39,926 bases of DNA, from the NCBI GenBank assembly GCA_965140935.1, contig CBCSLL010001219.1:1-39926 (forward strand), given 5' to 3'. This document shows, piece by piece, positions 3,328 through 33,130 of this stretch (within the stretch, counting starts at the first letter, position 1; the number at the start of each line of letters is the position of its first letter). The notes beneath the pieces are model-generated. The model worked only from the letters and a program-made list of their open reading frames with translations, did no database searches and was not told the origin of the DNA. The translations under genes were made by a program, and so were the position numbers. The stretch comes from Rotaria magnacalcarata (Eukaryota).

Positions 3328-4389
3328 CTAATCAAACATCAGACAAAATAATGTTTCACGTCTATAAATTTACAAGAGGAAACGAAATATCATTGAATAT
3401 TCCGTCCATCCTTAGTCCAATTAACATCAGAAAAAGTTACCTGGGACTCCACTCTATTCCATACGTCGTAGAAGTCAGGTCTATTATCGACTTCGAATTA
3501 AAGCTTTCCGTTCGTCTGCCGCCATATTAGTATCTCAAAAAGTTGCCGGAGCTGCTTCTGTTTAAACTACATGGGGTAAAAAAACTCCTTCATTTCTTTC
3601 TATCATATATTTGCAGATAATAATATTATGTATATGACAATAATACGGGAGACAAAGTTCTGGTCGCTTGTCATACATGAAACCTTCAAAGGATACGAGA
3701 TATCTTCGTTGTTCCTTGTCTGTTCGCAACAACGAAAATACAATAGAGTATAGCATTACATTTTTTACAAGGGCAACGAAATGTGATATGAGAGGTATCA
3801 TTTGAATAGTGTAAACTAAATACAAGTCGTATAGTGGTACTTACCGTTAAATAATGTCCAACGGTGATCGAAGTCGAAGAAGAATATGTGAAAGCGCTAG
3901 CTAAGAATGTGTGTGAAAGCGAAAAACGAAAGAAACAAGTGAGAAGTGTATCTTTTTATAATACTTCTATCGCTGTGATCACTGATGCATATATGGCTTT
4001 TCTTTCGTCTTAACGGAAAAAAGGAGTGATTTCGATAAAAGAACCCGCAAACAAGGTATTTTTCGCGTCGTACACGTAACGAACGCTATAGTACTTAATT
4101 GATAAAGATAAAAGAAGGAAGTCGCATTAATCACCTCCCTTGAATCTGAGAGACCCATTTCTTGGAGCGTAAATCCAGCTTCAAAGTTTTTCGAGTTTCA
4201 ATTTTTGCTTTCTTCTGTTTTATAAACTATTTGAAGGGTCCTCTATCTACCTGACATATTTGAAGGATCAATACATATCTATTAGAGTCAAAGAATCTAA
4301 AAAGACCATGTGACGAAAATCAATCAAAATGGCGAATTTTGTCGATTTTCGAAAAAAAACGTCGGGTTGTTCTTTCGAAAATGCTCAAT

Positions 4390-4420
4390 TAACGGGTGGG
4401 CCAGAATAAATGGCGGTCTC
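4390..4420. repeat. left TIR of the Tc1/mariner element
   Basis: See the element call; it pairs with 5669-5699. Confidence 0.8.
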
Positions 4421-4516
4421 CGCATTTCTTGAGTATTTTCGTCAATTCTCATATTTTCGAACTGAGCTTTTTTTGAACTAATCGTCTTTCGATTCTCTAC
4501 AAAAATAGTCTTTTTA

Positions 4517-5572
4517 TTATCTTAAATAGCTTCCTTTAACTTGAGACAATCGATACAATCGATTGGTCCAAGATGAACAAATTTCAAAAACAACATTGAG
4601 AGAAACTTTACGAACAGCACGTTTCACTTCGTTAATTAATGTCGTTTTAGATGTTACTGCGTCCCAGTTAACTTGATGTGCGAGTTTGTCCCATATGCAG
4701 TAATCTAATGGGTTCAAATCAGGACTGCTTGGAGGCCCATGATCTTTGTCGATGAAGCATGGAAAGTGCTTTGCACACCATTCTTGTGATTTCGCATGAA
4801 TGCGTGACTTTGCATCGTCCTGCTGAGAGGTCCAATCGGCTCCAAACGTATCATGACCAAACTTGAGAGCAACCGGTAGGACCTCCTTGATGTATTGATC
4901 ATGGTCTACTGTCCCGTCCTCGAAAATGACTAAAGGTGATACACCTTTAAAACAAACTGCGAGCCAAACCATTACTTTTTGCGGAAACTTACGTTTTTGC
5001 CGAATACCACCGTTGGTATCAGCAGCTAAAAGATTAACCGCCCATATTCGACCGTTTTGAGAACTATAAATTCCGTCAATGTCGAACATCTTCTCATCAG
5101 AAAACAAAATTTTCATTGTGTTTTATTTTCGGAAGTTTGTTCGTATCCAATTAGCAAACTTAATTCTTTTTTCTTTATGCTCATTAGTGAGCAATGGTTC
5201 GTTTTGTATTTTCTAGGCTCGCAGTCCTAGATCATTTTTGAGTATTCGTCGAGCACTGGTCCTAGAAATACTCAACTCACGAGCTACTTTTCGTGATGAG
5301 ACAGGTTTCCGGTACTCCAGCAGATTTTTTACCTTTTGTATGGCTCCTTTCGTTCGAATAATTCGGTGACACCCCGATGGACTAGACAGGTTGATTGAAC
5401 CGGTATCGCGTATGTTTTTGCACCATCTTTCGATTGTCCGAAGACCGATTAAACCATTGAGATCGCGAAAAATTTTTGTCGGCCCATCACCACTTTGATA
5501 CTTTGAAAGTACCAAATTTTGAAAATCTTTACTTTTCATGAACACAAGTAAATCCAATGAAATTGAATTCAT
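4517..5572 (-). pseudogene. Tc1/mariner transposase (~346 codons) interrupted by two in-frame stop codons
   Basis: The two ORFs (5213-5572 and 4517-5116) lie in the same frame. The ~24 codons between them, bounded by a TAG and a TAA, read KIQNEPLLTNEHKEKRIKFANWIRTNFRK, the usual linker between the HTH and catalytic domains. N-terminal paired-like HTH: ...LSISRTSARRILKNDLGL. Catalytic motifs: ILFSDEK (first D), WTSQQDD (second D) and SPDLNPLDY (third residue is D, not E). By my count there are ~37 residues between the last two, a DD37D-like, maT/mariner-type signature. Confidence 0.85.
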
Positions 5573-5668
5573 AGGGAACTACTCTGTCTTGTAGAGAATT
5601 GAAAGGCGATTTGTTAAAAAAAATTATCCGGAACGAATGAAAATTAATGAAAATATTTGAGAAATACA

Positions 5669-5699
5669 GAGACCGCCATTTATTCTGGCCCACTCGTTA
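5669..5699. repeat. right TIR of the Tc1/mariner element
   Basis: Reverse complement of 4390-4420 with one mismatch. Confidence 0.8.
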
Positions 5700-6843
5700 T
5701 TTACAGTGACTTCAACTCAACATGACGAAACTCTCTAAACTAATATCCGTTTCAAAATATAAGAGCGGTGGCTGATTTTTGAATTACTCTGCCTAGGAAC
5801 ATGATAGAAACCTGCCGTTTCAACCATAGATAGAGGAGATCTGACATCATAATTTCACATGGAAACGAGAGAAATTCTAGTATGTAAGGGAACCAATAGG
5901 TTCAACCCAAGGAACTTCGACATGGAGAAGATCCTCAAAAATTTTGAATTTCAAATTTTATTATCGGGTTGGGTAGAGCTTGCAAACTTGAGGCCATACC
6001 TAAATTTTCAGTCTGTTTGGTTGAACCATTCTTGAAATAGGGATACCTTACTTTTAGTGGTTGCACAGGCGATTTTTTACAATTTTCACTTAAAAAAATT
6101 TTCTTCCGATGACCATTTAAATCTGAAAGCATGTTCGATTCATCCTTTGTTTTATATAAATTAATAGAGCAAAATCTGCTCTACAAAACTATGTCACTTT
6201 TATTTGTTTTCAACTGATCCATGTGAACTACAAACTTGAGCATTATGAAAGACTATGCATTCCCATATCTGCTATCTCTGATTTGGTGTTTTAAAAATAT
6301 GTATCCTTGATTAAAATAGATCAGAAAGCTTTCTGTGTGAAAGTACCAAGGATAAACGAATAACTATATTTAGTTATTAGTTGTCTAAAATGCATAAAAT
6401 ATTTCATAAGAGACATTTTCCTAAATTGAATCGTTCACTGCTTTTTCGGCGAGAATCTTTTAGATGGTCTACTTCATTCTTTTTTTGTGATAGGCAGTTG
6501 ACACACTGTTTCTTTTCAAGTGGAATTCTAGGGCTAGTATAAGGAGAAAAGTATATCAGATCAAGTATACGAAAAGAAATCTTCTAAATATTAGGTTACA
6601 TATTAGCGGGAAAGAAGCAAACGCAAAGATCGACTAAATTACAGTATTATAAAATTATTTATGACCGAGTTTTTTTTCATTATATTTAGATGTCATCGAC
6701 AATGATACATATGATGATGAAGCTATTGATAATGATAACAACGACGAGGAACAGTTTCAAATTCAATCAGTTGAACATGCAAAAAATATGTACTCGTTAG
6801 CACACGAATTGATTATCAGTATCGTTTTGATAATCTCAATAGA

Positions 6844-9643
6844 ATGTGTTTATATGACTTTGTTAGCATATTCTATAAGAAAAAAATGAATTCTACAGAT
6901 CTGAAATATTTATCCAAGATAGCTGGATCAATAGAAGAAAAAATTAACCGAAAAGGTCGACCACCTAATGAACGATTTCTTTTTCAAAAGCAGCATCCTC
7001 AGGCTACAACCTATTTAATGATGAAGTACAGCGAATCTCATGTGCCTGTTCTCTATGGTCCTCAGATCCCTCGACAAGATCGTGATGATACTCGAGAACG
7101 ATATTGTCGGGCTATTCTCACACTTTTCGTACCCTGGCGTACTGTGACTGATATTTGTGACATCGGTCAGACATGGGAAGATACATTTAAATCTCGACAA
7201 CATCTTATTTTGAGACATTCATGGACGATAATAGAAAACATTCAACTTTTGCATGAATGCAAAAAGGACCGCGATGATCATTTACTTCAAGTTATCGCCG
7301 AAGCACAAACCGATAATAGCTTAGTCGATCCTGTACTAATACCGACTAATCAAGTCGATGGTGAATATGGCACTGATGACAGTGACGATTTAATTGAATT
7401 ATTAGGTAATTTGGATGAAAACACAGTTGCTATGCTCAATGCTACAAAAAACTCAACAGAAAACAGATATATTGAAGAAACAATCGAAGCAGTCAAGAAC
7501 GTCGGACGATTTAACAGTGTGAACAGTAAGTATTATTTGAATGTGATCTTTAGAATCGACAATAATCGTACAAAATTTGTTGTAGCATATGACCAATATT
7601 CTTTAAATGAACCGAGCGATCGTATCGATCAATCATTGGTACCATTTATTTCTGCAACACCTAATCTTGTTCGACTCAATGCAAAATGGCAAGAACAACT
7701 GAAAACTGAGAAAGAACAGATTAGAAGAGGTTTGATTACGGGCAACTTTGACAAAGACGATGATGGTATGTTGAACTTGGATGCTGCAAGAAGTGCCGTT
7801 GCCACTGTAGTGACTCTAAACAATATGAATATTAATACGAAGATATGCGAAAACTATGGTTCGATTCCTGCAGTAATATTAGTCAAAGCGAACTCTTGTA
7901 CTCAGAAGAGTGTTGCCGATGAATTTACACTGAACAGAGAACAACGGGCTGCATTTATGATCATAACAGGTCATCTTGATGGTGATAGCCGCTGTCGTAC
8001 AGGTAATCTTTATAATAGAAGTCATCACATATTGAAGTACATAATATTTTCAGGTGACAATAATGGTCAGCTTATAATGTGCATACCTGGATGTGGTGGT
8101 ACAGGCAAATCACAATTGATTCGTGCTCTTACCAAATACTTTTTAGTTACAAAGAGAATACAAATGATGCGGAAGTTAGCACCTACTGGTATTGCCGCTG
8201 CTGAAATCGATGGTATGACCATCCATTCGTTTTTGGGTGAACAGCGTAACTCAGGAAAGGCACGTACAATTAAACCAGGAGATTTAAAACTCGAGAAGGA
8301 ATGGGCCCTCGTTGAATACCTCTTAATTGATGAAATAAGTATGGTTGGTTTAACTCTACTTGCGAAACTCAACCGAATTATATGTGCTGCAAAACATACC
8401 GATCCTCAAGTTCCATTTGGTGGTGTAAATGTCATCTTCTTCGGCGATTATTTACAATATCGACCTGTATATGATGTACCTCTACATACAGATTTCACTT
8501 TGCCGGTCAAAAATAAATCAAACAAGATAGCAACTGAAAAACAAATTCAACAACGTGTTGCACGTTCTTTAATTCTTCAAATCAATTGTGTGGTCAAACT
8601 TACTCAACAGATGAGAACAGAAGATCTACGTTATCTTCAGCTACTCGAACGACTTCGTCATGAAGAATATGTAACTACGATGACTACGAATTATTGTTAA
8701 CACGAATAGTGGGGCAATCTTCCGTACCCTTGTTAAGTGATTCACCATGGAATAAAGTAAATTTGTTTTTCTAGATTTAGACAATTCACTATCTTCATCT
8801 TTTTAGGCTCCGATTCTTGTATTTCGTAACGAAATACGAACACAATTAAATCACAAGGCACTTAGTCACAAAGCACAACAAGTGGGACAGACACCTATAG
8901 TATGCATTGCCCAAGACACCTGCAAAGGCAAACTAATTGAAGATCGAGCACTTATTAAAAAATGATTAGAATTATCTGATAGTAAAACAGAGCATCTACC
9001 AGGTCTATTACCTCTTGTTCCTGGAATGCCTGTAATTTTAACGCAAAATATTGCAATTGAATTGGGTCTTATCAACGGTGTGAACGGAATCTTTCGGCAG
9101 CTTGTCTACCAGGAAGATTCCGTGTCAACTGATATTATTTCAGAAGAATTTTCCAAGAATGCACGATATGTCCATCGACCTCTGTACGCCTTGGTGGAAA
9201 TTAGCAAATCAACGATCGAATGCAATTTAGAACAACTTCAGCCAAAACTGATTCCAATACCGGTAATGGAACAAACATTTCGAGTCGATATAGGCGATAT
9301 GCTTCCAAAAGATAAGAAACCAAAATCAAATAGAAAAACACTGTTATCAATTAAACGGCGCGCATTACCACTTGTACCAGCTTATTGCATTACAACACAC
9401 AAGAGTCAAGGTCAAACATTGAATAAAGTTGTGATTGATTTAAAACTGCCAAATGAAACCGATGATATTGCTGCAGTCTATGTACCCTTATCGCGGGTAA
9501 AACGCTTAACTGATTTGTTTATTTTGCGATATTTTGATTACAAGGTGTTGTTAATTAAACCCAGCAAGTCACAACTGACAGAAATTGAACGACTCGATAA
9601 ACTATATTTAGAGACCCAAGCACGCTTTCCAGAATGGTTGTAA
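6844..9643 (+). pseudogene. PIF1-family (Helitron-type) DNA helicase, degenerate: one frameshift and one in-frame TGA
   Basis: ORF 6844-8700 carries Walker A (PGCGGTGKSQLIRAL), Walker B (LLIDEISMV), FGGVNVIFFGDYLQYRPV and QQMRTED motifs of PIF1/RecD-like SF1 helicases. After a frameshift, 8815-9025 reads ...QDTCKGKLIEDRALIKK*LELSDSKTEHLPGLLPLVPGMPVILTQN and is interrupted by a TGA. ORF 9026-9643 supplies the C-terminal helicase motifs (CITTHKSQGQTLNKVVIDL). I see no HUH Rep motif upstream. Confidence 0.8.
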
Positions 9644-11187: not shown

Positions 11188-11282
11188 TGGGGTTTGGGTG
11201 CGTATGCGGGTGTGTGTCGGGGGTCTGGAGTGTGCGTTTCGGTGTGACAACAAATTACAGAAATACCCACACACACACCCCT
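11188..11282. repeat. telomere-repeat-like hairpin: G-rich tract then C-rich tract
   Basis: ggggtttgggtgcgtatgcgggtgtgtgtcgggggtctggagtgtgcgtttcggtgtg ... cccacacacacacccc. Confidence 0.7.
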
Positions 11283-15089: not shown

Positions 15090-15350
15090 TCGACCCATGG
15101 CTCTTTCTTCAAAATTTATGGTCCTTTCACTGCATTTTTTGACCTATTCCTAGATATTTATTAAAAAAATCAAATTAAGCAAGTTCGATCTGAAACTTTC
15201 ACGATATTCTAAGAGTTCTTAGACTAATCCGTGGGCAAAGTTTCAGATCGAAATTGCTTAATTTTATCTTTTTAGTGCATACCTAGGAATAGGTCAAAAT
15301 TTCACTAAAAGGGGTATAACTTTTCAAAAGCCATGAACCAAAGCGCTTTT
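15090..15350. repeat. MITE-like imperfect palindrome (foldback)
   Basis: Nested inverted repeats: attaagcaagttcgatctgaaactttc / gaaagtttcagatcgaaattgcttaat, and tgacctattcctag / ctaggaataggtca. Confidence 0.6.
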
Positions 15351-17863: not shown

Positions 17864-18005
17864 CTAAAATGAATAATACTTAGGGGTACACAAAAGTTTT
17901 TCTATGCCGTTTCATCCCTATTCAACTGATATCATAATAATAAAATTTCAACAGGAATTGTTGTTATTGAAAATTTAACAAATACTTAAAGCAGATTAAA
18001 TTGAA

Positions 18006-18062
18006 GGTGTGGATGTGGGTGTCGGCATGCGCTGAAAAAGACATACCCACACCCACACCCCA
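18006..18062. repeat. telomere-repeat-like hairpin
   Basis: ggtgtggatgtgggtgtcgg - 20-nt spacer containing gcatgc - cccacacccacacccc. Confidence 0.75.
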
Positions 18063-19287: not shown

Positions 19288-22200
19288 TCATTTTTTAAAT
19301 TCGATATATGTAGATTTTGGTCCTAGATCAATTAGCATACCCTTTTGCATTTTATCTTTTAGTTCATCTGCTTTATCGTAATCATTCAATGAATGTCGAT
19401 ATGTGCGTATGATAGCCATCATGATAGCAAATTTCGCATCACCACCTGCTCGATAGGAAACTTTTTGACAAAGTTTTTCAATATCAACAATTGTTTCTTT
19501 TTTGCCCTGAATCGATGCACATTCCAGTGAAATACGCGCATCGGCCAATTTCTGTTTGATTGAAGTCAAATTTGAAACATCACCATCCCATCCCATGCAT
19601 GGTAGTAAGTCAACATCGCGTTCCAGCATAACTTCAAGCAAACGAACACCTATAACAGAGAGTACATGTTTCAATAGTGATGTAGATACTTCAATTTTGG
19701 TGCTAGTAAGATTTTTGATCCATAGTGTAAGAAACATACAGATAAATTTTTGCTTTTCTGCTATTATTTTACTAACCTGGTTGAACAGTTTTTATATCCG
19801 TGTTGACATCACGTTCTTCGATGGCAACAAAACTAGTGTATTTACTGACAACAGAATGTTTGATGCTGAGATCGATGAGATCTCGTTTGTATTGAACTTT
19901 GATCAATTCGTTTTCGCTCTCGTCGACATCCAATAGCCCGTTGTCATAATCATCAATAATCGCTCGAGTGGTTAGACAGTGTAAAATACGTCCTCTGGTC
20001 GTTGTCATTGCACTACTAAATACAGTCGTAACAAATTCTTGTTCGTCAATAGTAGCCGCCAATGTTGCCTTGTGACAATTTTCTATGAATCGATAAACAG
20101 TAAGTCGCATTCCATTGAACAAAGATCGAATCATTTTCGGTGCTTGCATATTGAGTTTTTGCTCTTTATTCAAACAGCCATGCCAGTCGATTGATATATT
20201 TGTAACACACGGTTGTCGAATCTGTTCGAGGATGTTAAATACTTTTGTTTTCCACTTCGATCGATAGTTTGAATCGAATACTATTGTTAGACCACCTCCA
20301 TTTGCTCCATTAGCTAACTGTTTCAAAACATGTTTGTTTGCAACGTTACCAATTGAGCATGTAAACAAACGATCACGACGCATAGTTGGTCGATGTTTGA
20401 GTAGAGCCAGAATTGAATTGAGGTCGTGAATATGTCCATCGGATAAAAGAACGATTTGACGGCCAAATTTCGACGATAACGACGATCGTAATAACGAATA
20501 ACGTTGAAGGACAGCAAATAGATCCGTATTACCACGATGGACACGTGAATGCTAGAATTTATGAAAACGGATATTTCAATAGAAAAATCAGATTCAAAAA
20601 AATAAACTACTAACTAGAACAAAGTGTTTGGCTTTATCGAGATTTTCTTTTGTAGTTGGTGCTGACATAGGAAAACATTCATCGTTATCTAAATAGTTGC
20701 AATTTCAATAGTAAAATAAATGTAGATCCTAATACTATATGTACTTCAAAAAGTAACTAGGCTGATTACGATGACCCAGCCTAATTATCTAGACTGATCA
20801 TTTTTTTAGCCCGTAAAATTCTCTATCGAACGGTATATATCACGTCGCATGGGTCAAGGCGATCCATTAGATCTTCGTGACTGTGCAAAATCTTGTAATA
20901 TTTAGGTGCCTGTTTCTGAATCTCAGAAACCAAGCTGAGATAGCTTACCTTTGTGTATGACTTAATATACTTCACTATAATATTTCAATTGATTTTCATA
21001 ATATAGTACTAGAGGACCAAAAAGTGCGTCCACGTAACCTGGATAGGCCAATGTTCCCATAGAGAAAACGAAGGCAATAATGACATTTTTTAGTATAACT
21101 CACTGCGAATCATTGTCATCCTCGAACTTGCTCGAAATATTGATGAGACGATTCTGTGTGCGAAATTTCATCAAAATCAAATGATATTTTGAAAGAGTTA
21201 TAGTGTTTTGAATGCGCAATAACGCTGTAGAATATCATCTTATTACCTGATCCAAAAGTAATTACATTAAAATATGTATTCTCATCTTCAACTTTCAAAT
21301 TCGTAAGAAACAAATGAGCTAACTGTTTAGCTTGCTGTACGTGACTGCCATCCATTGAATTTGATAGATCAACAATGAAAATAATTTCAACTTGTTCTTT
21401 CGAAGTCGTCAATGTTTCGAATCGTGGATAAAAGGTAAGCATACATGTTTGAGATTGATGGCTGTTCGATGTGTCAGTTGTTTCACTGTTGTCATCCAAT
21501 GGCAATGTTTCATTTGCTATTCGCGGTAAATTAGGACTGTTGAGTGTGATCGAAAGAATAAAATCTTGATCAATTAAGACATTATCAACAAGTTCAATCA
21601 TAGCTATACAATCGGTTACTTTCCGACGTAGATGATGTGTTGGGGAAAATAATTTCGTTATTTTATAGGGCATTCGAATCGATGCTTTGAAACTGAATTC
21701 AACTTTTTCATCGACAATACCGATAGATCGTAAAATCGATTGATCTTTGGTTTCGACAGCTTTTTTCGATTGCCATGAAGTCATTTTGGTTGGAAGGCGA
21801 AAAATAATGTCATCATTTTCGATTTCTAATTCGGCAACATAAATTATTTTGATGATAACTTCAGTATGCGCTGGCAAATTACCAACCGCAACGCTGAACA
21901 CTTGAGCTTCTTCTTGATGCATTAAATAGGCGCCATGACCCTTTTCAATTGCTTCTCTATACTCGCGTTTGGCTTGTTCTTTCTCTTTAACGACACCTTT
22001 GATAACTTTATTGTTAATATGTGCTTCGAAACCGCATACAGTTGAATTTTCATCAAGAGGAAACACATACTTAGCTTCGATAGGTATCGAACTTGTATTA
22101 TGATAGACTTGATAGAGAACAACCTTTTCATTTGATAGAAACATGAGGAATTAGTATTTTACTTCAATCGAAACGTAGATATAATTACTTCAACTGTAAC

Positions 22201-24696: not shown

Positions 24697-25122
24697 CTGA
24701 AAATAATCAATGATTTATGAATCAATCTACGAACGTATCCATTTTATATGATCGATTTTCAATAGAATCGTGTGATAACTAATGTGGTTACGCGTTACTT
24801 CATGCAAAGGAAAAGAGAAAAAAACAAGGAGTAGACAAATGTTGTTCATATATTTCTTTTCAGTTCTGCACGTTGAGTTATTGCACAAGCTGCTGAAATA
24901 GTCGGTATACCATGGAAATTTTCATACTTCATGAAGCTCAACATTAATGCATTTTATTATGAACGTCGTCGCTAATTGTCCCATATCATGAAAACCAGAA
25001 GAATGTGAATCTTAATGTAGCGCTTAAACAACTATAAAGATATAGTTGTTAGGTGGCCATGAAAATAAAAGGTTTTCAGAAAACATTTTCTTCTTTCAAA
25101 CTTTGTAGAGCTCTCTTTGTCG

Positions 25123-25136
25123 AGGGTGTGGGTGAA
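25123..25136. repeat. short G-strand telomere-like tract
   Basis: gagggtgtgggtg. Confidence 0.4.
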
Positions 25137-26797
25137 AGATTATCTATCCATGCTACCAGTGACGGAGCCAGGATTTTAGTCTAGGGCGGCTGAGCCGTCA
25201 TCTATTGTGTCGTACTACATTTTTTTTCTCAATATTTTGATTTTCTCATTAGGATGAGTTGCAAAATTTTTCACTATTATTATATCGGATAGTGCAGTGA
25301 AATTGCAACAAATCGATGCATGTTCCTAATGCCGAAAAAAGAAAAAAATCAGCCAAAACTCAAAAAGTTTTTATAACTTGACTGCTGTTGTTCGTCGACT
25401 ATTACTCATATCTGAAGAGATTTTTGAAAAATGTGTTTTTGTCTTATCCAAAAGTGTATTAACGCGCGGTCGGAAATTTTTCAATCGAAATGATCTTTTT
25501 CACTTTTAATTGGACGGAAAGTATTTTCGACTTGCTTAAAACTATTATTAGTTACTATCAAAAGTTGGTACCTGTTTTGGAAATTGACCTAGAATTCAGT
25601 TTTTCTTCGAAAGTAATCAGTGAAATATTCTTCAGAAAAGCAAACAAATAGGTGAAGATGGAAAAATTTTCCGTTCATTTTTGTATTTTGGTTTGCAATT
25701 CAAAATTTGTTCTTATCAAAGCTCATTTCTGTAAAATCGACTTTTCAACAAAATCATTTTACGTTAAGAGGAGCTCTTAATAAATGCGTTTAGAATTAAT
25801 TGAGTTAAAGCTAGTTTAAATCAATACCCCGTTTTTTGTCGGGAAGTATCCGCTCAAGAAAATCACGCACTACGACCATTCTTAACATCTTTTGAAAAAA
25901 ATATACACAACATTTATAAGATCATCTTCGAAAATGCGCAAAACTTTAGCCATAGAATAACTTTTGACTCGTCTGAAATGCCTTCTAGTTGAGTGGTAAT
26001 GAACAAAACCGTTTCTTAAAATCTTCCAATCATTAGTTATGTGTTCGAAAGATAGATTATAACCTTTAAAACCTGATTGGAAATTAGAATTAAAGTATTT
26101 TATTTTCTTACGGAACAGCTACGAACCTCACCCAATAAATAAAGCATTAAAATATTCAATTGCAAAGACTTATACATCTTTTTATAACAAAAAGTTCATC
26201 CTTCAAAAATTTGGCTAGGAATGGGGGGCTCAGTCCCCCTAACCCCTCCCTTTACCCGCTACTGCATGCTGTGTATTTTAGAAATAAATATTTTAAAATC
26301 ACTTTGATATGAACGAAACTTAATACATTTTCGAGTGTTGCACTTCGTTTTTGTTCTTGTTTTTCAAAAACGTGTGTATTCATTCATGTAATATAGACTT
26401 TATGTTTGCTGGTGACTTAAATAATGAAAATCTTATTTATTATTCGATGGAGATTTGCCGTCAGTGACAACATAGATACATGAAAGCAGCAACTATGTAA
26501 TTAAATGTATGCTTTTTTTATAGCACAACTTTATACGTCGTGTAAAAGCATGTTTTTGTTTTATGAATCGTTCTTATCTTTATTGCAATTGTGACATGAT
26601 AGTTTTTCTTCTTGTCAACATTATACTTTAAGCTTTTGTGGTGATAATGTATTTGCCTTATTTATTTCAATTGTTTTTAGCCAATAGGATGATGGACCGT
26701 TGTTTTTCTATTATGTACTTAGGAGTTAACGATTCATGTCATCCGATCTACAACATATAACATTTGATTATTCTGTCTCTTGCGATTATATTTCTAT

Positions 26798-27062
26798 ATG
26801 AAACACATTATTGATTTCAATTTTAGAAATATAAGTGAAGATTCACATCTCATGGACTTGGAAAGCCAGGAAGAAAGCTCGATTGCCAAAGAAATTAATG
26901 ACAGTAGCAAGAATACTAGAGGTAAAAAGATTTTTATTCCGGCGACTGGCACTCTAGGAGATGTGAAACCTTTTATGATACTTGCCGAAGAACTTAAAAA
27001 ACGTGGACATATCGTATGGCTTGGTGTACATCGACGTTATCAAGACATAGTAAAAGCTGCTG
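26798..27062 (+). CDS. GT1-family UDP-glycosyltransferase, exon 1
   Basis: N-terminal GT-B motif KKIFIPATGTLGDVKPFMILAEELKKRGHIVWL...IVKAAG. First ATG at 26798; an alternative ATG at 26852 (MDLESQ). Donor GGTAAGT at 27063. Confidence 0.8.
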
Positions 27063-27208
27063 GTAAGTACTATCAATCTTAAATCCAACAATCGCTTGAT
27101 ACTTTCCCATATTATCATTGTATCATCGCACAATATAAATCTAAATCTAATATTGAAGAGTTCTTTCATTAATATTTCCATGATATCACCTTCTATTTGT
27201 TTATTCAG

Positions 27209-28380
27209 GTTTCGATGTAGTTGAAATCGGTGGTGACCTAGAACATTTTTTATCGACAAGCCCAGAAGGAATCGAGCTCCGACGGAATCCAAGTATTTTA
27301 AAAATGGGATTAGTAAAACGTATATTTCAACCAGTGATTGAAGAATGGTTTAATGGAATTCTGTCTGGTGTAAAAGACGCTGATTTAATTGTTCTAACAG
27401 TTGCATCTATTTTCCCTGGATTAAGTTGTATTGAGAAATTTCCTAATATTAAAGCAATTGGAATCTACACATTCCCAGTGATACGAACAGTTCATTTTTC
27501 GCCGCCTGGTTTAGGTGGGAAAAGTGGTAGTTTGTTCAAGTGGGCCAATTTATTGAAATGGAAAATAGTCGACTATGCTATGTCAAGCATCTATAATGAT
27601 AAACTCAATGAACTTCGTGCCACTAATGATTTACCACCAATGAAATTAAATTATGAACGTATGACTCAATTCCTGTTTCGTAAGCCATTGGTATCTGCAA
27701 CGATCTATTCCAAATATTTAATACCATGTCCATCCGATTGGCACGAAAATGATCATATGGTCGGTCCAATACTTGAAAAAGAAAATGAGAATTTTCAACC
27801 GCCAACTCCTATTCTTGACTTCTTGACCAAATGGAAAAACGAGAAGATTATCTATGTTGGTCTTGGATCAATGATGGGTACCATGTTTGGAGCAGATGAA
27901 CAAATGGAATTTATACGCAAAATTTTATTGGCTCTTGATAGAAATAATTGTAAAGCAGTTATGTCATTAGTTGGATTTAAAAGCGCAGATGCCAGTACGT
28001 TATCCACAGCTGATAATATATTTTATTTGACACATGCCATTCCACATTCTTGGTTATTTATTTATATGTCAGCAACAATTCATCATGGTGGTGCCGGTAC
28101 TACACATGCAAGTCTTTGGTATGGATTGCCTACATTAGTATTATCTTTTGGAGCCGATCAACCATTTAACGGTGATCGAATATTTATCAATAGATTAGGA
28201 CCAAGATCTATTTCCATACGTCACACCAATGTGAAGAATTTAACTAATGCAATTCGTGATCTTATGATTGACAATTATAACATTTATAAAACCAGTGCTA
28301 AAAAGATTAGCGAATTAATTAAAAATGAAGATGGACTTAGTCATTGTGTTCGTCTTATAGAAGCAGAACTAGCAGAATAA
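27209..28380 (+). CDS. GT1-family UDP-glycosyltransferase, exon 2 (sterol 3-beta-glucosyltransferase / bacterial MGT-like)
   Basis: 146-nt intron 27063-27208 (gtaagt...ttattcag) joins in phase: ...KAAG|FDVVEIGGD. C-terminal donor-binding signature SATIHHGGAGTTHASLWYGLPTLVLSFGADQPFNGDRI is the HHGGAGT...DQ motif of UGT51/UGT80 sterol glucosyltransferases and bacterial macrolide-type GT1. It is not the animal UGT HCGANG signature. Confidence 0.85.
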
Positions 28381-28879
28381 CGTTTACCTTGTCAAGATTT
28401 TTTCAGAGATATTTTTTTATTGAATTGTTTCCTATTGGATTTGATATGCCACGGATATGGTATAGTTTGATCGCTTTGAAAATCGAAATATCGACTGTGT
28501 CGTCAATAAAAGGGATCGTATATATTCGAATCAAATGAAAAATTTCACTGACAAACTAACAAGGTTAAATTGTAGTTAAGTATGCAAAAATCCACGAGTT
28601 CTCACAGATTATATGAACATGTAGTCATAATCGAGTTACTTATACACTCGAAATATTAGACTTTTAAAAGTTTGCATGAGAAAAATATCACACATACAAT
28701 ATTCCACCACCTGATGACAATCAGGAATTATGAAACTTGATATGTACCCATAATGACGATTTTGTTGCATTTAAGATCAACTACAATAACATATATAGCA
28801 GTTCATAACTTTACAAATACTGAACTGCGAGTAACATAAAAATCGAATATCTCCTTCTTGACAAGCCAGCGGCCGTTAG

Positions 28880-28930
28880 AGGGTGTGCGTATGCGTGTTG
28901 TGTTTACTAACACTTACTCCCACACCCATC
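28880..28930. repeat. telomere-repeat-like hairpin 0.5 kb downstream of the glycosyltransferase
   Basis: agggtgtgcgtatgcgtgttgtgtt ... ctcccacacccatc. Confidence 0.65.
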
Positions 28931-29170: not shown

Positions 29171-30134
29171 CCACAACCGGTTCCATCTCATAACTATGAT
29201 AGAGGGATAAAGATGGTCGTCTTATGTCAGGAGATGTCTCTACTAACATAACATTTCCCCCTCCAACAAAAAGTTACAAAGTAACGATAAAATACGAGAT
29301 TGAAATGATTCAAACACTATGAGAAGAAGAAAAAAAACGACAAGAACATAGTAAGAGTAAAAAGAACGAAAAACTTTAAATAGTTCATATTGTTCACTAG
29401 AAACAATATGCGAGATGATTACAAAGAGAACAGCTGATGATAAAGTAATTCAAATACGATGAAGAAAAATGTTTATGATACGATCTGATTGAGTGGTGGA
29501 TGTAGTGGCAATGGTGACTGATGAGGTGATGACAGAACTGACGAGTTGTGTTTGTGTAACGGTTGATTAATTACTGGATTTGGAGTGTGATAATAAGACG
29601 ATGTAATTGATGTTAAATCATTGATACGATTTCTAAGTCGTTTACCACGGCAAGCGATCTTTATGATCGACCAACAGTATCGATCAGCATAGACAAAAAG
29701 AATGACGAAAACCACAACACTAAGGATTATCTGTATCAGTAAGACATTGTGGGTCCAATTGCTAGGCGTACATGTTTTGTGTTCATCGAGATTTGTTTCT
29801 GTTCATTGTGATTATTATCATATTTTGTTTCGAATTGAACATTGACTTTGTCACCACAAAATAAAGTGTTGGTACATGATACATCGACGAATATGAAAAA
29901 AACGTGTAATGCAAGTATAATGAATGTATTGTAGTTGTCTGAGTGAGTAGTGATCAAATAGCTGCTGCGTGGTCATCAACAATAATAATTGGAAGTAATC
30001 ACCAACTAAGCCTTCAAAGGACTAAGTGAAATCAGGAAAAAAAACTGTTGTTTTATATCTATATTGGGCCATGTTTCGTCATCATTGTATGCTTTACTGA
30101 ATAGAACATTAATAAAGATGTAATCCATATGCGA

Positions 30135-30186
30135 AGGGTGTGGGTGTGTTAGAACAATTGTATCAATCACCCACACGCACACCCCA
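30135..30186. repeat. telomere-repeat-like hairpin
   Basis: agggtgtgggtgtgtt - spacer - cacccacacgcacacccc. Confidence 0.75.
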
Positions 30187-30192
30187 TGATCG

Positions 30193-30378
30193 GTAGATTA
30201 AGTTTGAGGGATTAATTTCGGGGATAGATATAGATAAGGTGATAGCTTAAGTTTGAGGGATTCATTTCGGGGATAGATATAGATAAGGTGATAGCTTAAG
30301 TTTGAGGGATTAATTTCGGGGATAGATATAGATAAGGTGATAGCTTAAGTTTAAGGGATTAAGTTAAGGGATAGGTTA
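30193..30378. repeat. minisatellite, ~3.7 copies of a 49-bp unit
   Basis: Unit gatagcttaagtttgagggattaatttcggggatagatatagataaggt, repeated with one or two substitutions per copy. Confidence 0.85.
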
Positions 30379-30924
30379 TCGGTTGAAATCGTGCAAGCGC
30401 AGATCAATTACATTGCAACTGTAATGAACTTCCAGGTACGAAATCATTTTCAGTGTGAATTGAAGATAGCTGGGTATGGAACCATACTTTTACAAAACCC
30501 AAAACCAAATGTCTATTTCATTGCAAATCTGTGAATCTTTATTAAGTTCTGTATGAACCTTTTTCCAGTGTAGATAAATTGTAGAACCTTAATAAAAATT
30601 CGACCTGATCCGGTTAGTTCCCTTTATTTTTATTGCATGATCCAATATAATCCCGTTGGATCCATTTGTCGGAACTAATCGGATCCAACGAGATCCTTTC
30701 CAAGTCAAATGTTCATCGAATTCCGGGTCACTGGATTTAGGGTTCATTACGACAGAATCCGATCGGATTGAGCCGAAAACCAACCATTTCCGACATTATC
30801 CAATATAGGATCGTATCCGATTCGACAAGATGCATTGGTCGGAACTCTCGCCATGAGTTAGTATTTGCTACTCCACTCCAAAAGCTCATTTCTCGAAGCA
30901 TGAGTATAAATCTTCCCCTCAATT

Positions 30925-30938
30925 ACACCCACACCCTA
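30925..30938. repeat. short C-strand telomere-like tract
   Basis: cacccacaccctaa. Confidence 0.4.
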
Positions 30939-31915: not shown

Positions 31916-32716
31916 TTTTTCTTGCCATTAACGTTTTGATAAGCCTCGACAGACCGTCTTGTACCTAACGCTGTACGTTCGATAACTGTTCTTGCTGAAA
32001 AGACAAGTGATTCTCGTACACTAAAACGAACAAATAGTTGTCATGTCAAATGAAAGTAAATTATACTGAAATGAACCTCACATGCGCTGTTGAAAGTAAC
32101 CAATGCCTTCAAGGTTAAATTCACTTTGAAGTATTCTTACTTTTCTATCATCTTCCTTATGTAAAACAAATATTGCCAATAATTTCATTGTTTTGAAATT
32201 TTTCAATAAGACTGGTGAAAATCTCAGTGAAGTTATTAAAATTTAAAAGGATAAAGATTTAATGTGAATAATACTACATGAATATATATAAGAATCCTCG
32301 AAGACTCGTTAGTCATCAATGCGAATATCAATGAAACCTTTTTTTTTGTGACTCAACTTCGGATGATGTGGCAGCTAGAAACCAATCAAAGAGTAGCTAG
32401 ATGACATAAATATTGGTTTGTGAATAATAAGTAAGTACTTTTTACCAACATCGTTATTACTCACATTTACTCTGACGTTACACATATGCGAATCATTAAA
32501 AACTAAGGTTTTCTAAAAATTGAGCCGCCAATTTTATAAAATAGAAAATGAAATCAATTATGTCTTAAACAGATATTGTGTATTATTACCATTGCAAGGT
32601 TTATAGATGCAGAGTCTAAATCAGATCATATTTTACTTTTTACTAAGACTTATGGGTACGGATTTAGTGTAGGTCGGTACAAGTGTGGCTGTGACTGGAT
32701 GCAAGAGAAGAAAAGA

Positions 32717-32732
32717 AACACCCACACCCGCT
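32717..32732. repeat. short C-strand telomere-like tract
   Basis: aaacacccacacccgc. Confidence 0.4.
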
Positions 32733-32875: not shown

Positions 32876-32945
32876 ATGGATGTGGGTGTTTGTATTAAAT
32901 GATAAACAACTCGCACTCATACCTCGACCCTCACACCCACAACCA
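32876..32945. repeat. telomere-repeat-like hairpin
   Basis: atggatgtgggtgtttg ... ccctcacacccacaacc. Confidence 0.7.
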
Positions 32946-33083
32946 TATTATTCGATTTAATATTCGCTTTAATTGTTTGCAGAAAAGCAAAAGTCGAGAT
33001 CAGAAGATTGGTTTGTCTCTTCGTTAAAAGATCGATTGGCCTGTTCTATTATTTGATTTAGGCATATTCTAGAAAAGAATGAA

Positions 33084-33130
33084 GTGTGGGTGCGAGTAAA
33101 GAATCAGTTATCCATACCAACACACACATC
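33084..33130. repeat. telomere-repeat-like hairpin (degenerate)
   Basis: gtgtgggtgcgagt ... ccaacacacacatc. Confidence 0.55.

Follow-up and report, generated by a model that had tools for sequence, protein, structure and literature searches.

The stretch of DNA analyzed here, referred to as the window, comprises 39,926 nucleotides (nt) of genomic DNA from the bdelloid rotifer Rotaria magnacalcarata (GenBank assembly GCA_965140935.1, contig CBCSLL010001219.1, positions 1 to 39,926). Two elements of the window are the subject of this analysis: a two-exon gene for a GT1-type glycosyltransferase at positions 26798-28380, and a set of degenerate telomere repeats arranged as inverted pairs, one of which lies just downstream of that gene. 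The features of the glycosyltransferase gene are as follows:

26798 to 27062, plus strand: exon 1, with the ATG start codon at 26798-26800, codons 1-88 and the first base of the codon for Gly89
27063 to 27208, plus strand: intron of 146 nt (GTAAGT...TTCAG, 27% GC), phase 1, within the Gly codon
27209 to 28380, plus strand: exon 2, encoding the remainder of the N-terminal domain and the entire nucleotide-sugar-binding C-terminal domain, with the TAA stop codon at 28378-28380
26948 to 26971, plus strand: GTLGDVKP (residues 51-58), the N-terminal G-x-x-G-D-V-x-P loop
28081 to 28104, plus strand: HHGGAGTT (residues 380-387), the donor-site diphosphate-binding loop, aligned with HHGGSGTT of UGT51
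28150 to 28173, plus strand: GADQPFNG (residues 403-410), in which the D405-Q406 pair is the sugar-hydroxyl-binding motif
28505 to 28510, plus strand: AATAAA, a candidate polyadenylation signal (from sequence only) located 125 nt past the stop codon

A preliminary description of this DNA, made from the letters alone, had predicted a single in-phase GT-AG intron of 146 nt, and this was confirmed at 27063-27208. Retention of the intron would lead to an in-frame stop at 27082, while splicing gives a product of 478 amino acids (aa). The 460-aa product of the preliminary description corresponds to initiation at the second ATG (26852) and not at the first; NCBI carries annotations of both the 478-aa and the 460-aa forms. 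Residues 1-43 are weakly conserved and were modeled with low predicted local distance difference test (pLDDT) values. All 478 residues are identical to those of P0123 (R. magnacalcarata CAF2163330.1 / CAM4808977.1 / UniRef A0A816YIB1), which means that three independent R. magnacalcarata assemblies have the open reading frame (ORF) intact; the disruption that had been named as a possible objection to the gene was not encountered. The GC content of the coding sequence is 35.3%, compared with 34.6% for the window, in agreement with the AT-rich, host-like composition noted earlier.

A Pfam scan of the protein assigned only two glycosyltransferase domains, Glyco_transf_28 (PF03033) at the N-terminus and EryCIII-like_C (PF06722), plus a marginal match to UDPGT (PF00201; 20.5 bits against a cutoff of 19.5). 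The AlphaFold2 model, built from 75 homologues, reached a pLDDT of 90.6 and a predicted template modeling score of 0.88, with the first ~43 residues unstructured. Its best fold match was yeast UGT51 (template modeling score 0.84), followed by the vancomycin Gtf enzymes (GtfB/GtfD), spider-mite UGTs and macrolide glycosyltransferases. The top 50 matches listed by Foldseek against the PDB were all glycosyltransferases, nearly all of them named GT1-type natural-product or UDP-glycosyltransferases. With two Rossmann-like domains and a C-terminal HHGGxGT...D/E-Q motif, the protein falls within CAZy family GT1 of the GT-B fold; the three motifs on which the earlier assignment to GT1 was based were all located, and both Pfam and the fold agree with it. 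Across the 75 aligned homologues residues G51, G54, D55, P58, G308, S309, H381-G385, D405 and Q406 are invariant, and these are predicted to constitute the catalytic loop and the nucleotide-sugar site typical of GT1 enzymes. By analogy with the literature on GtfB/UGT51-type GT1 enzymes, Asp55 is the putative catalytic base.

The preliminary description had placed the protein with the sterol glucosyltransferases UGT51/UGT80 and the bacterial macrolide-type enzymes, apart from the metazoan UGT family. The last point holds, as a regular-expression search with the metazoan UGT signature PROSITE PS00375 found no match in the protein. The placement itself stands in part. By sequence, the solved protein that comes closest is the UGT51 catalytic domain (100 bits), and the GT1/GT-B fold, the GxxGDVxP and HHGGxGT loops and the DQ pair of UGT51/Atg26 (PDB 5GL5, 5XVM) and plant UGT80 are also found in the bdelloid protein. 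However, UGT51 is only ~22% identical to it, nearer relatives of eukaryotic type exist (see below), and both trees and indels put the protein apart from UGT51, UGT80 and the fungal enzymes: it has a six-residue insertion after GxGSM and an FNGD motif, whereas the UGT51/UGT80 type has F[WY], lacks the insertion and branches elsewhere. Fungal sterol glucosyltransferases carry GRAM and PH membrane-targeting domains (PMC9698648). Neither was found by the Pfam scan, and the enzyme is therefore not a demonstrated sterol glucosyltransferase.

The bacterial half of the placement fares similarly. Bacterial GT1 enzymes (MGT/OleD/OleI, GtfA-E, CalG, YjiC/YojK) share with the bdelloid protein the fold, the Pfam domains, a similar length and a catalytic-domain-only architecture, yet their solved members are only 15-20% identical to it. 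The MGT subfamily model (NCBIfam TIGR01426) scored 65.5 bits against a cutoff of 260, which places the protein outside the macrolide glycosyltransferase subfamily. With the Mgt, OleI and Rgt models the scores were 21-32 bits, where the cutoffs lie at 700-800. In contrast to bacterial natural-product GT1 genes, the bdelloid gene lies outside any biosynthetic cluster in the window.

Metazoan UGTs carry an ER signal peptide and are anchored in the membrane by their C-terminus. The bdelloid protein contains no C-terminal hydrophobic segment or membrane anchor; its sole hydrophobic 19-mer is a strand plus helix of the Rossmann core, and the N-terminus is hydrophilic. From these features we infer a soluble, catalytic-domain-only enzyme that would behave like a UDP-sugar-dependent small-molecule glycosyltransferase. 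In the proposed mechanism, which is that of an inverting glycosyltransferase, a UDP-sugar, probably UDP-glucose, would be held by the HHGGAGT loop, Ser309 and the D405-Q406 pair, and Asp55 of the GxxGDVxP loop would deprotonate a hydroxyl group of the acceptor, presumably a lipophilic small molecule such as a sterol, a xenobiotic or a secondary metabolite.

Homologues with 53-85% identity were identified by a word-indexed search in Rotaria, Adineta and Didymodactylos. Family members were also present on many metagenome contigs, in which prokaryotic gene callers had reported only the exon-2 ORF. The position and phase of the intron are the same in the window gene, in its R. magnacalcarata paralogue (640 nt), in A. 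vaga (74 nt) and in D. carnosus (~1.6 kb); an intron of equal length (146 nt) and with equal boundaries is present in Rotaria sp. Silwood1 and in R. socialis, where its sequence is identical as well. Two old paralogue clades can be distinguished, each with both Adineta and Rotaria members, and the window copy is a Rotaria-specific branch within one of these groups. The shared intron and the composition of the two clades indicate that the family, together with its intron, is older than the bdelloid radiation. The family is small, with few distinct proteins per species among the matches listed, and it was not singled out in the bdelloid literature searched.

Outside the bdelloids, the word-indexed search showed an abrupt drop in identity, from at least 53% within the group to at most 33% for bacteria. 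An exhaustive HMMER search of 1.84 billion representatives gave a different picture. Only three sequences exceeded the bulk of the matches, which scored at or below 178 bits: P0131 (314 bits), P0132 (297 bits) and P0136 from the amoebozoan Vermistella antarctica (192 bits; 32% identity). P0131 (36% identity) is encoded on a 2.7-kb metagenome contig with 35% GC and long non-coding flanks. P0132, also 36% identical, has a C-terminal FYVE finger and is encoded among Thg1, CHCH and Rad17 genes on a contig with 48% GC. Lower scores were obtained for P0054 and Anaerosporobacter (175-178 bits), a named Clostridia protein (175 bits), an oomycete sterol glucosyltransferase (155 bits) and fungal ones (140 bits).

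The relationships were examined with distance-based neighbor-joining trees (200 replicates). The bdelloid sequences were monophyletic in 199 of 200 replicates, they were joined by P0131 in 138 and by P0131 and P0132 in 162, and the group was extended to Vermistella in 82; the set further enlarged by P0138 and the green alga Auxenochlorella (P0113) was recovered in 152 of the 200. All of these sequences have in common the six-residue insertion after GxGSM, which was found neither in any bacterial sequence inspected nor in UGT51, poplar UGT80, Fusarium or a chytrid. A second character is more narrowly distributed. The Asn of GADQPFNG stands where bacterial and canonical sterol glucosyltransferases have Trp, and this change, from DQPFWG to DQxFNGD, is limited to the bdelloid paralogues, P0131 and P0132, which also have RNPSxFK and WxNxxKWK in common. 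The orphan eukaryote-type group formed by P0131, P0132, P0136 and P0113 thus contains the closest non-bdelloid kin, although it differs from the bdelloid family in sequence (32-36% identity), in the FYVE C-terminus of P0132 and in being intronless at the bdelloid site (P0131 and P0132).

The contig of P0132 (L097, 5252 nt), assembled by Logan from SRR33677529, bears the closest full-length non-bdelloid relative, a glycosyltransferase fused to a FYVE zinc finger. It carries five intronless genes on one strand (PH-like, Thg1, glycosyltransferase-FYVE, CHCH and Rad17), separated by spacers of 60-200 nt, and shows a strong positive GC skew. Its Thg1 protein matched only itself in a database of 5.8 billion proteins. 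The source is apparently a protist-like, seemingly unsampled eukaryote. A giant-virus origin of P0132 was also considered, and the scan of viral contigs returned nothing.

We consider it probable, from the comparisons described above, that the window carries a functional nuclear gene for a GT1 (GT-B) enzyme and that this gene reached the bdelloid lineage by horizontal transfer from outside the animals, before the bdelloid families of today separated. The horizontal, non-animal origin is well supported. No non-bdelloid animal was found among the named matches down to ~89 bits in the word-indexed search, and none in the profile search, many matches being unnamed; the HMMER search and phylogeny that had been suggested as a check disclosed no vertically inherited metazoan relatives among the named matches. 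About 8% of A. vaga genes are candidates for horizontal acquisition (PMC8494291). Such bdelloid genes are usually recognized by non-metazoan best matches, host linkage, an intron and ameliorated composition, and the glycosyltransferase gene has all of these: its non-metazoan matches (314, 297 and 192 bits; named bacteria 175 bits) exceed any non-bdelloid metazoan match by at least 30 bits (many matches being unnamed), it is linked to bona fide host genes, it contains an intron and its composition is host-like. The domesticated foreign gene proposed in the preliminary description is accordingly upheld, as bdelloids are the only animals in which the searches found the family, and the gene is linked to host genes and carries an intron. 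After the transfer, the gene would have gained or kept its one phase-1 intron, the family would have duplicated at least once before the Adineta-Rotaria split, and moderate purifying selection would have acted on it since the duplication. Since the family is bdelloid-wide and ancient, and was duplicated later, its acquisition is not specifically linked to the present neighborhood of the window copy, as had been supposed from the telomere repeats nearby; it is an old acquisition and not a recent subtelomeric one.

The nearest non-bdelloid relatives are a few orphan eukaryote-type sequences, and for this reason a microbial eukaryote appears a somewhat likelier donor than a bacterium. A direct transfer from bacteria, e.g., from Clostridia-like Bacillota, would require that the orphan eukaryotes obtained the same gene independently or from bdelloids. 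It is consistent with the catalytic-domain-only architecture, which resembles that of bacterial homologues, and with the highest clade-profile score being that of the Clostridia-like profile (236 bits). In a tblastn scan of one genome per prokaryotic species (GTDB) the top matches were likewise from Clostridia and Oscillospiraceae (E ~1e-47), and P0054 and Anaerosporobacter head the bulk of the HMMER matches. However, the prokaryotic relatives identified in that scan were only 26-31% identical and showed no clear nearest lineage; they came from at least eight phyla, the groups represented including Clostridia, Chloroflexota, Cyanobacteria, Actinomycetota and Alphaproteobacteria. The bacterial sequences all lack both the insertion and the FNGD motif that the bdelloids share with P0131 and P0132, and the tree that includes the orphan sequences joins the bdelloids to those of eukaryotic type. 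A bacterial donor was given up as the leading explanation because the exhaustive HMMER search showed the word-indexed picture to be incomplete; we now regard it as possible, on balance unlikely.

Several observations weigh against an ancient acquisition of a functional gene from a non-animal source. The trees are distance-based and were built on saturated data (distances 1.2-1.6), so that long-branch effects are possible. The first tree, computed without the orphan sequences, set the bdelloids next to a long-branch Treponema-like group (134 of 200 replicates); this grouping was judged to be long-branch attraction, because the Treponema-like sequences are less similar than many others and the association vanished once P0131 and P0132 were added. 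Profiles of individual clades, built as hidden Markov models, separated poorly, with scores of 169-236 bits, that for eukaryotic sterol glucosyltransferases being 205. One of the organisms behind P0131 and P0132 could be an unsampled animal, or itself a recipient of the gene rather than a relative of the donor. The absence of family proteins from Monogononta (annotated in NCBI), Seisonidea and Acanthocephala applies to the protein databases searched and not to the genome DNA of these groups. Splicing in the family is hinted at solely by one Logan contig, which encodes 443 aa and has no intron. Finally, constraint is only moderate. In the comparison with Rotaria sp. Silwood1, used because R. 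socialis is too similar, there are 30 synonymous and 47 nonsynonymous differences, giving a ratio of nonsynonymous to synonymous rates (dN/dS) of 0.41, while the four differences from R. socialis are all nonsynonymous, with no synonymous change.

These substitution data would also be compatible with a decaying or functionless paralogue whose ORF is intact by chance or youth in an otherwise functional family, as would the alteration in the window copy of otherwise conserved residues (LPF to LSF before GADQ, and LRYG to LWYG). We hold this to be quite improbable. The excess of synonymous differences from Silwood1 is significant (30 observed, ~17 expected), the ORF, the intron boundaries and all invariant catalytic and donor-site residues are intact, and intact orthologues occur in R. 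socialis, Silwood1 and R. sordida. In R. socialis, moreover, the intron and the 400 nt upstream of the gene are identical to those of the window, the coding sequences being ~99.7% identical.

Vertical inheritance would make the gene a member of an old eukaryotic GT1 subfamily derived from the Amorphea ancestor and lost in all other sampled animals, fungi and choanoflagellates. The eukaryotic character of the closest relatives (an amoebozoan and a green alga, not bacteria), the presence of an intron and the host-like composition fit such a history, which is nevertheless highly improbable: the distribution is extremely patchy and requires many independent losses, no other animal, annotated monogononts in NCBI included, appears in the named matches to ~89 bits or in the profile search, the nearest relatives are only 32-36% identical, and P0131 and P0132 lack the intron at the bdelloid site. 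Contamination of the assembly by a microbial contig, for which nothing speaks beyond the non-animal affinities of the protein, is effectively refuted, because ordinary multi-exon host genes of animal type flank the gene on both sides (in CBCPNK020001032.1, a contig of 49.5 kb), a spliceosomal intron interrupts it, its GC content is 35% compared with 43-73% in bacterial homologues, and the arrangement recurs in R. socialis as well as in three assemblies of R. magnacalcarata.

A precedent for the use of acquired GT1 enzymes by an animal is offered by the mite Tetranychus urticae, in which bacteria-derived UGTs are reported to serve in xenobiotic conjugation (PMC10731231). The solved mite enzyme TuUGT202A2 is among the fold matches of the bdelloid protein. 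The mite UGTs belong to a different GT1 subfamily (24-27 bits), with ~80 genes, in contrast to the small bdelloid family.

The immediate neighbors of the glycosyltransferase gene are host genes. Its upstream neighbor, which is encoded on the opposite strand, is a large multi-exon gene whose product combines PARP, VIT, VWA and EF-hand domains, and the pairing of these two genes is kept in R. socialis. Its downstream neighbor is a longin-domain gene. The earlier statement that transposon relics surround the locus is for this reason not borne out. Recognizable relics are located at least 17 kb upstream of the gene, and no transposon-like ORF or repeat was found between 24.7 and 34 kb. The recognizable relics comprise two elements:

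4387 to 5702, ORFs on the minus strand: small DNA transposon relic with 115-nt inverted repeats (4387-4502 and 5589-5702) and two ORFs, one with an HTH_32 match
6844 to 9643: PIF1-like helicase ORF (618 aa) and, after it, an ORF of 205 aa that matches UvrD_C_2 weakly

The helicase at 6844-9643 may be Helitron-derived or foreign; no Rep domain was detected in this segment. Two long self-complementary palindromes, with 78-88% identity, are present at 1761-2281 (520 nt) and 15108-15327 (220 nt). A segment of 369 nt within the PARP/EF-hand gene region (19981-20349) is missing from a contig of the older assembly (L003), which is probably due to a filled gap or to an indel between isolates. The A. 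vaga member of the glycosyltransferase family (CP075492.1, 5037-13415 of L006) is located between a SnoaL-like gene (polyketide-cyclase type, weak match), a MOSC_N gene and an ABC transporter gene, with purple acid phosphatases upstream, and these surroundings could represent a cluster of foreign or metabolic genes.

A telomere-repeat hairpin 0.5 kb downstream of the gene had been reported in the preliminary description. It was found at 28879-28929, in degenerate form, and it proved to be one of a series. The following telomere-type elements were identified in the window:

28879 to 28929: degenerate inverted pair composed of GGGTGTGCGT, a loop and CCCACACCC, with 19-nt arms (28881-28899 and 28909-28927) that are 74% complementary; z = -2.9
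18005 to 18061: inverted pair within an intron of the EF-hand/PARP-like gene, arms of 21 and 20 nt; z = -4.3
30135 to 30185: inverted pair in downstream intergenic DNA; z = -3.6
34663 to 34737: the longest and best-paired inverted pair in the window; z = -5.5
11190 to 11281: further inverted pair
32682 to 32731: further inverted pair
32877 to 32945: further inverted pair
33083 to 33128: further inverted pair
25122 to 25135, plus strand: single G-strand arm in the interval that separates the PARP-like and glycosyltransferase genes
30924 to 30937: single arm

Each of the eight pairs consists of a degenerate (TGTGGG)n arm followed, after 15-50 nt, by (CCCACA)n, and the G-strand arm is always the 5' one. 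All eight are located in introns or in intergenic DNA, and DNA folding gave z-scores between -2.9 and -5.5. The window contains 10 telomere-type 12-mers, where 0.01 would be expected. Six more pairs were found in R. socialis and two at the paralogue locus, which brings the total for the Rotaria loci examined to 16, with no case of the reversed order. The loci examined in A. vaga, D. carnosus and Silwood1 had no such pairs. The literature searched contains no description of inverted telomere-repeat pairs in bdelloids, some key primary papers being outside its reach. A tandem repeat with a 49-nt unit (3.7 copies, 30194-30374) directly follows the hairpin at 30135-30185.

The comparison with R. 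socialis (contig L092) associates these repeats with structural differences. In R. socialis, aligned over window positions 26398-28380, the DNA from 350 nt past the glycosyltransferase stop codon onward is heavily rearranged. The 18005 pair is conserved, with both arms identical and equal spacing (L092 185-241). By contrast with this pair, the segment holding the lone G-arm (24995-25203) fails to align, and R. socialis lacks positions 28730-28902, including the left arm of the 28879 hairpin. A segment of 3.7 kb (L092 12131-15818) lies in R. socialis between the counterparts of 29137 and 29282; it carries a gene for a 624-aa TPR protein and is absent from R. magnacalcarata. This segment is bracketed by pairs at L092 12228-12277, 14511-14571 and 15052-15147, and at the corresponding site nothing but a (TC)14 microsatellite and a CCCACAACC remnant is present in the window. 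Homology stops at 29604, exactly at another R. socialis G-arm. The presence or absence of pairs on a second R. magnacalcarata contig (L096) was uninformative, this contig being 99.8% identical.

In a small sample, made up of two unannotated ORFs and three annotated genes (the longin gene, the paralogue and the R. socialis TPR gene), the distance from the stop codon or annotated 3' end to the start of a G-arm is 15-90 nt, and no AATAAA is present between gene end and G-arm in these cases. The gene ends followed by a G-arm are at window positions 28380, 31027, 34578 and 11304, at 7990 in L009 and at 12301 in L092; at the first of them, the glycosyltransferase gene, the distance is larger (499 nt). 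The 3' ends of ORF206 and ORF111 are insecure, as ORF206 is exon 1 of an annotated multi-exon gene, which makes the hairpin intronic, and ORF111 has no annotation.

Two other explanations were considered. A family of miniature inverted-repeat or foldback transposons was provisionally set aside on account of the unrelated loops, the varied arm lengths and the absence of target-site duplications, and a known RNA was rejected as no Rfam match was obtained in the window. The orientation in which the G-arm comes first matches that of a head-to-head telomere fusion. In A. vaga lines, telomeric repeats and Athena fragments have been found at deletion breakpoints, and transient neotelomeres leaving scars were proposed in 2026 (PMC13564844). 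We put forward, tentatively, that the pairs may be fixed scars of telomerase-capped neotelomere ends that were later joined, and that they would split this region of Rotaria DNA into blocks of about the size of a gene. Such joining might have inserted, moved or deleted gene cassettes, for example the R. socialis TPR gene, and perhaps also foreign DNA, the ancestors of the glycosyltransferase copy included. The hairpins may instead be functional 3'-end or boundary elements, an alternative of equal standing.

That the glycosyltransferase gene came to bdelloids long ago by horizontal transfer is well supported. Acquisitions of this sort are well known, and the significance of the gene is modest, since it adds one ancient, bdelloid-wide foreign enzyme family to an established phenomenon. 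Two details are useful, namely that the likeliest source is a microbial eukaryote and that the conserved intron dates the event before the bdelloid radiation. If the enzyme does glucosylate sterols or xenobiotics, bdelloids would gain through it a type of conjugation that is normally missing from animals or is carried out there by unrelated enzymes. The more interesting lead is provided by the recurrent telomere-repeat junctions. As head-to-head pairs located at structural differences between species with ~99.7% identical coding DNA, they matter more than the gene, for they may record the formation and rejoining of neotelomeres at the sequence level, which bears on DNA repair, rearrangement and possibly gene acquisition in bdelloids. 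If they are indeed scars of neotelomere joining, the reshuffling and uptake of DNA by bdelloids would have left a footprint that can be read in the genome.

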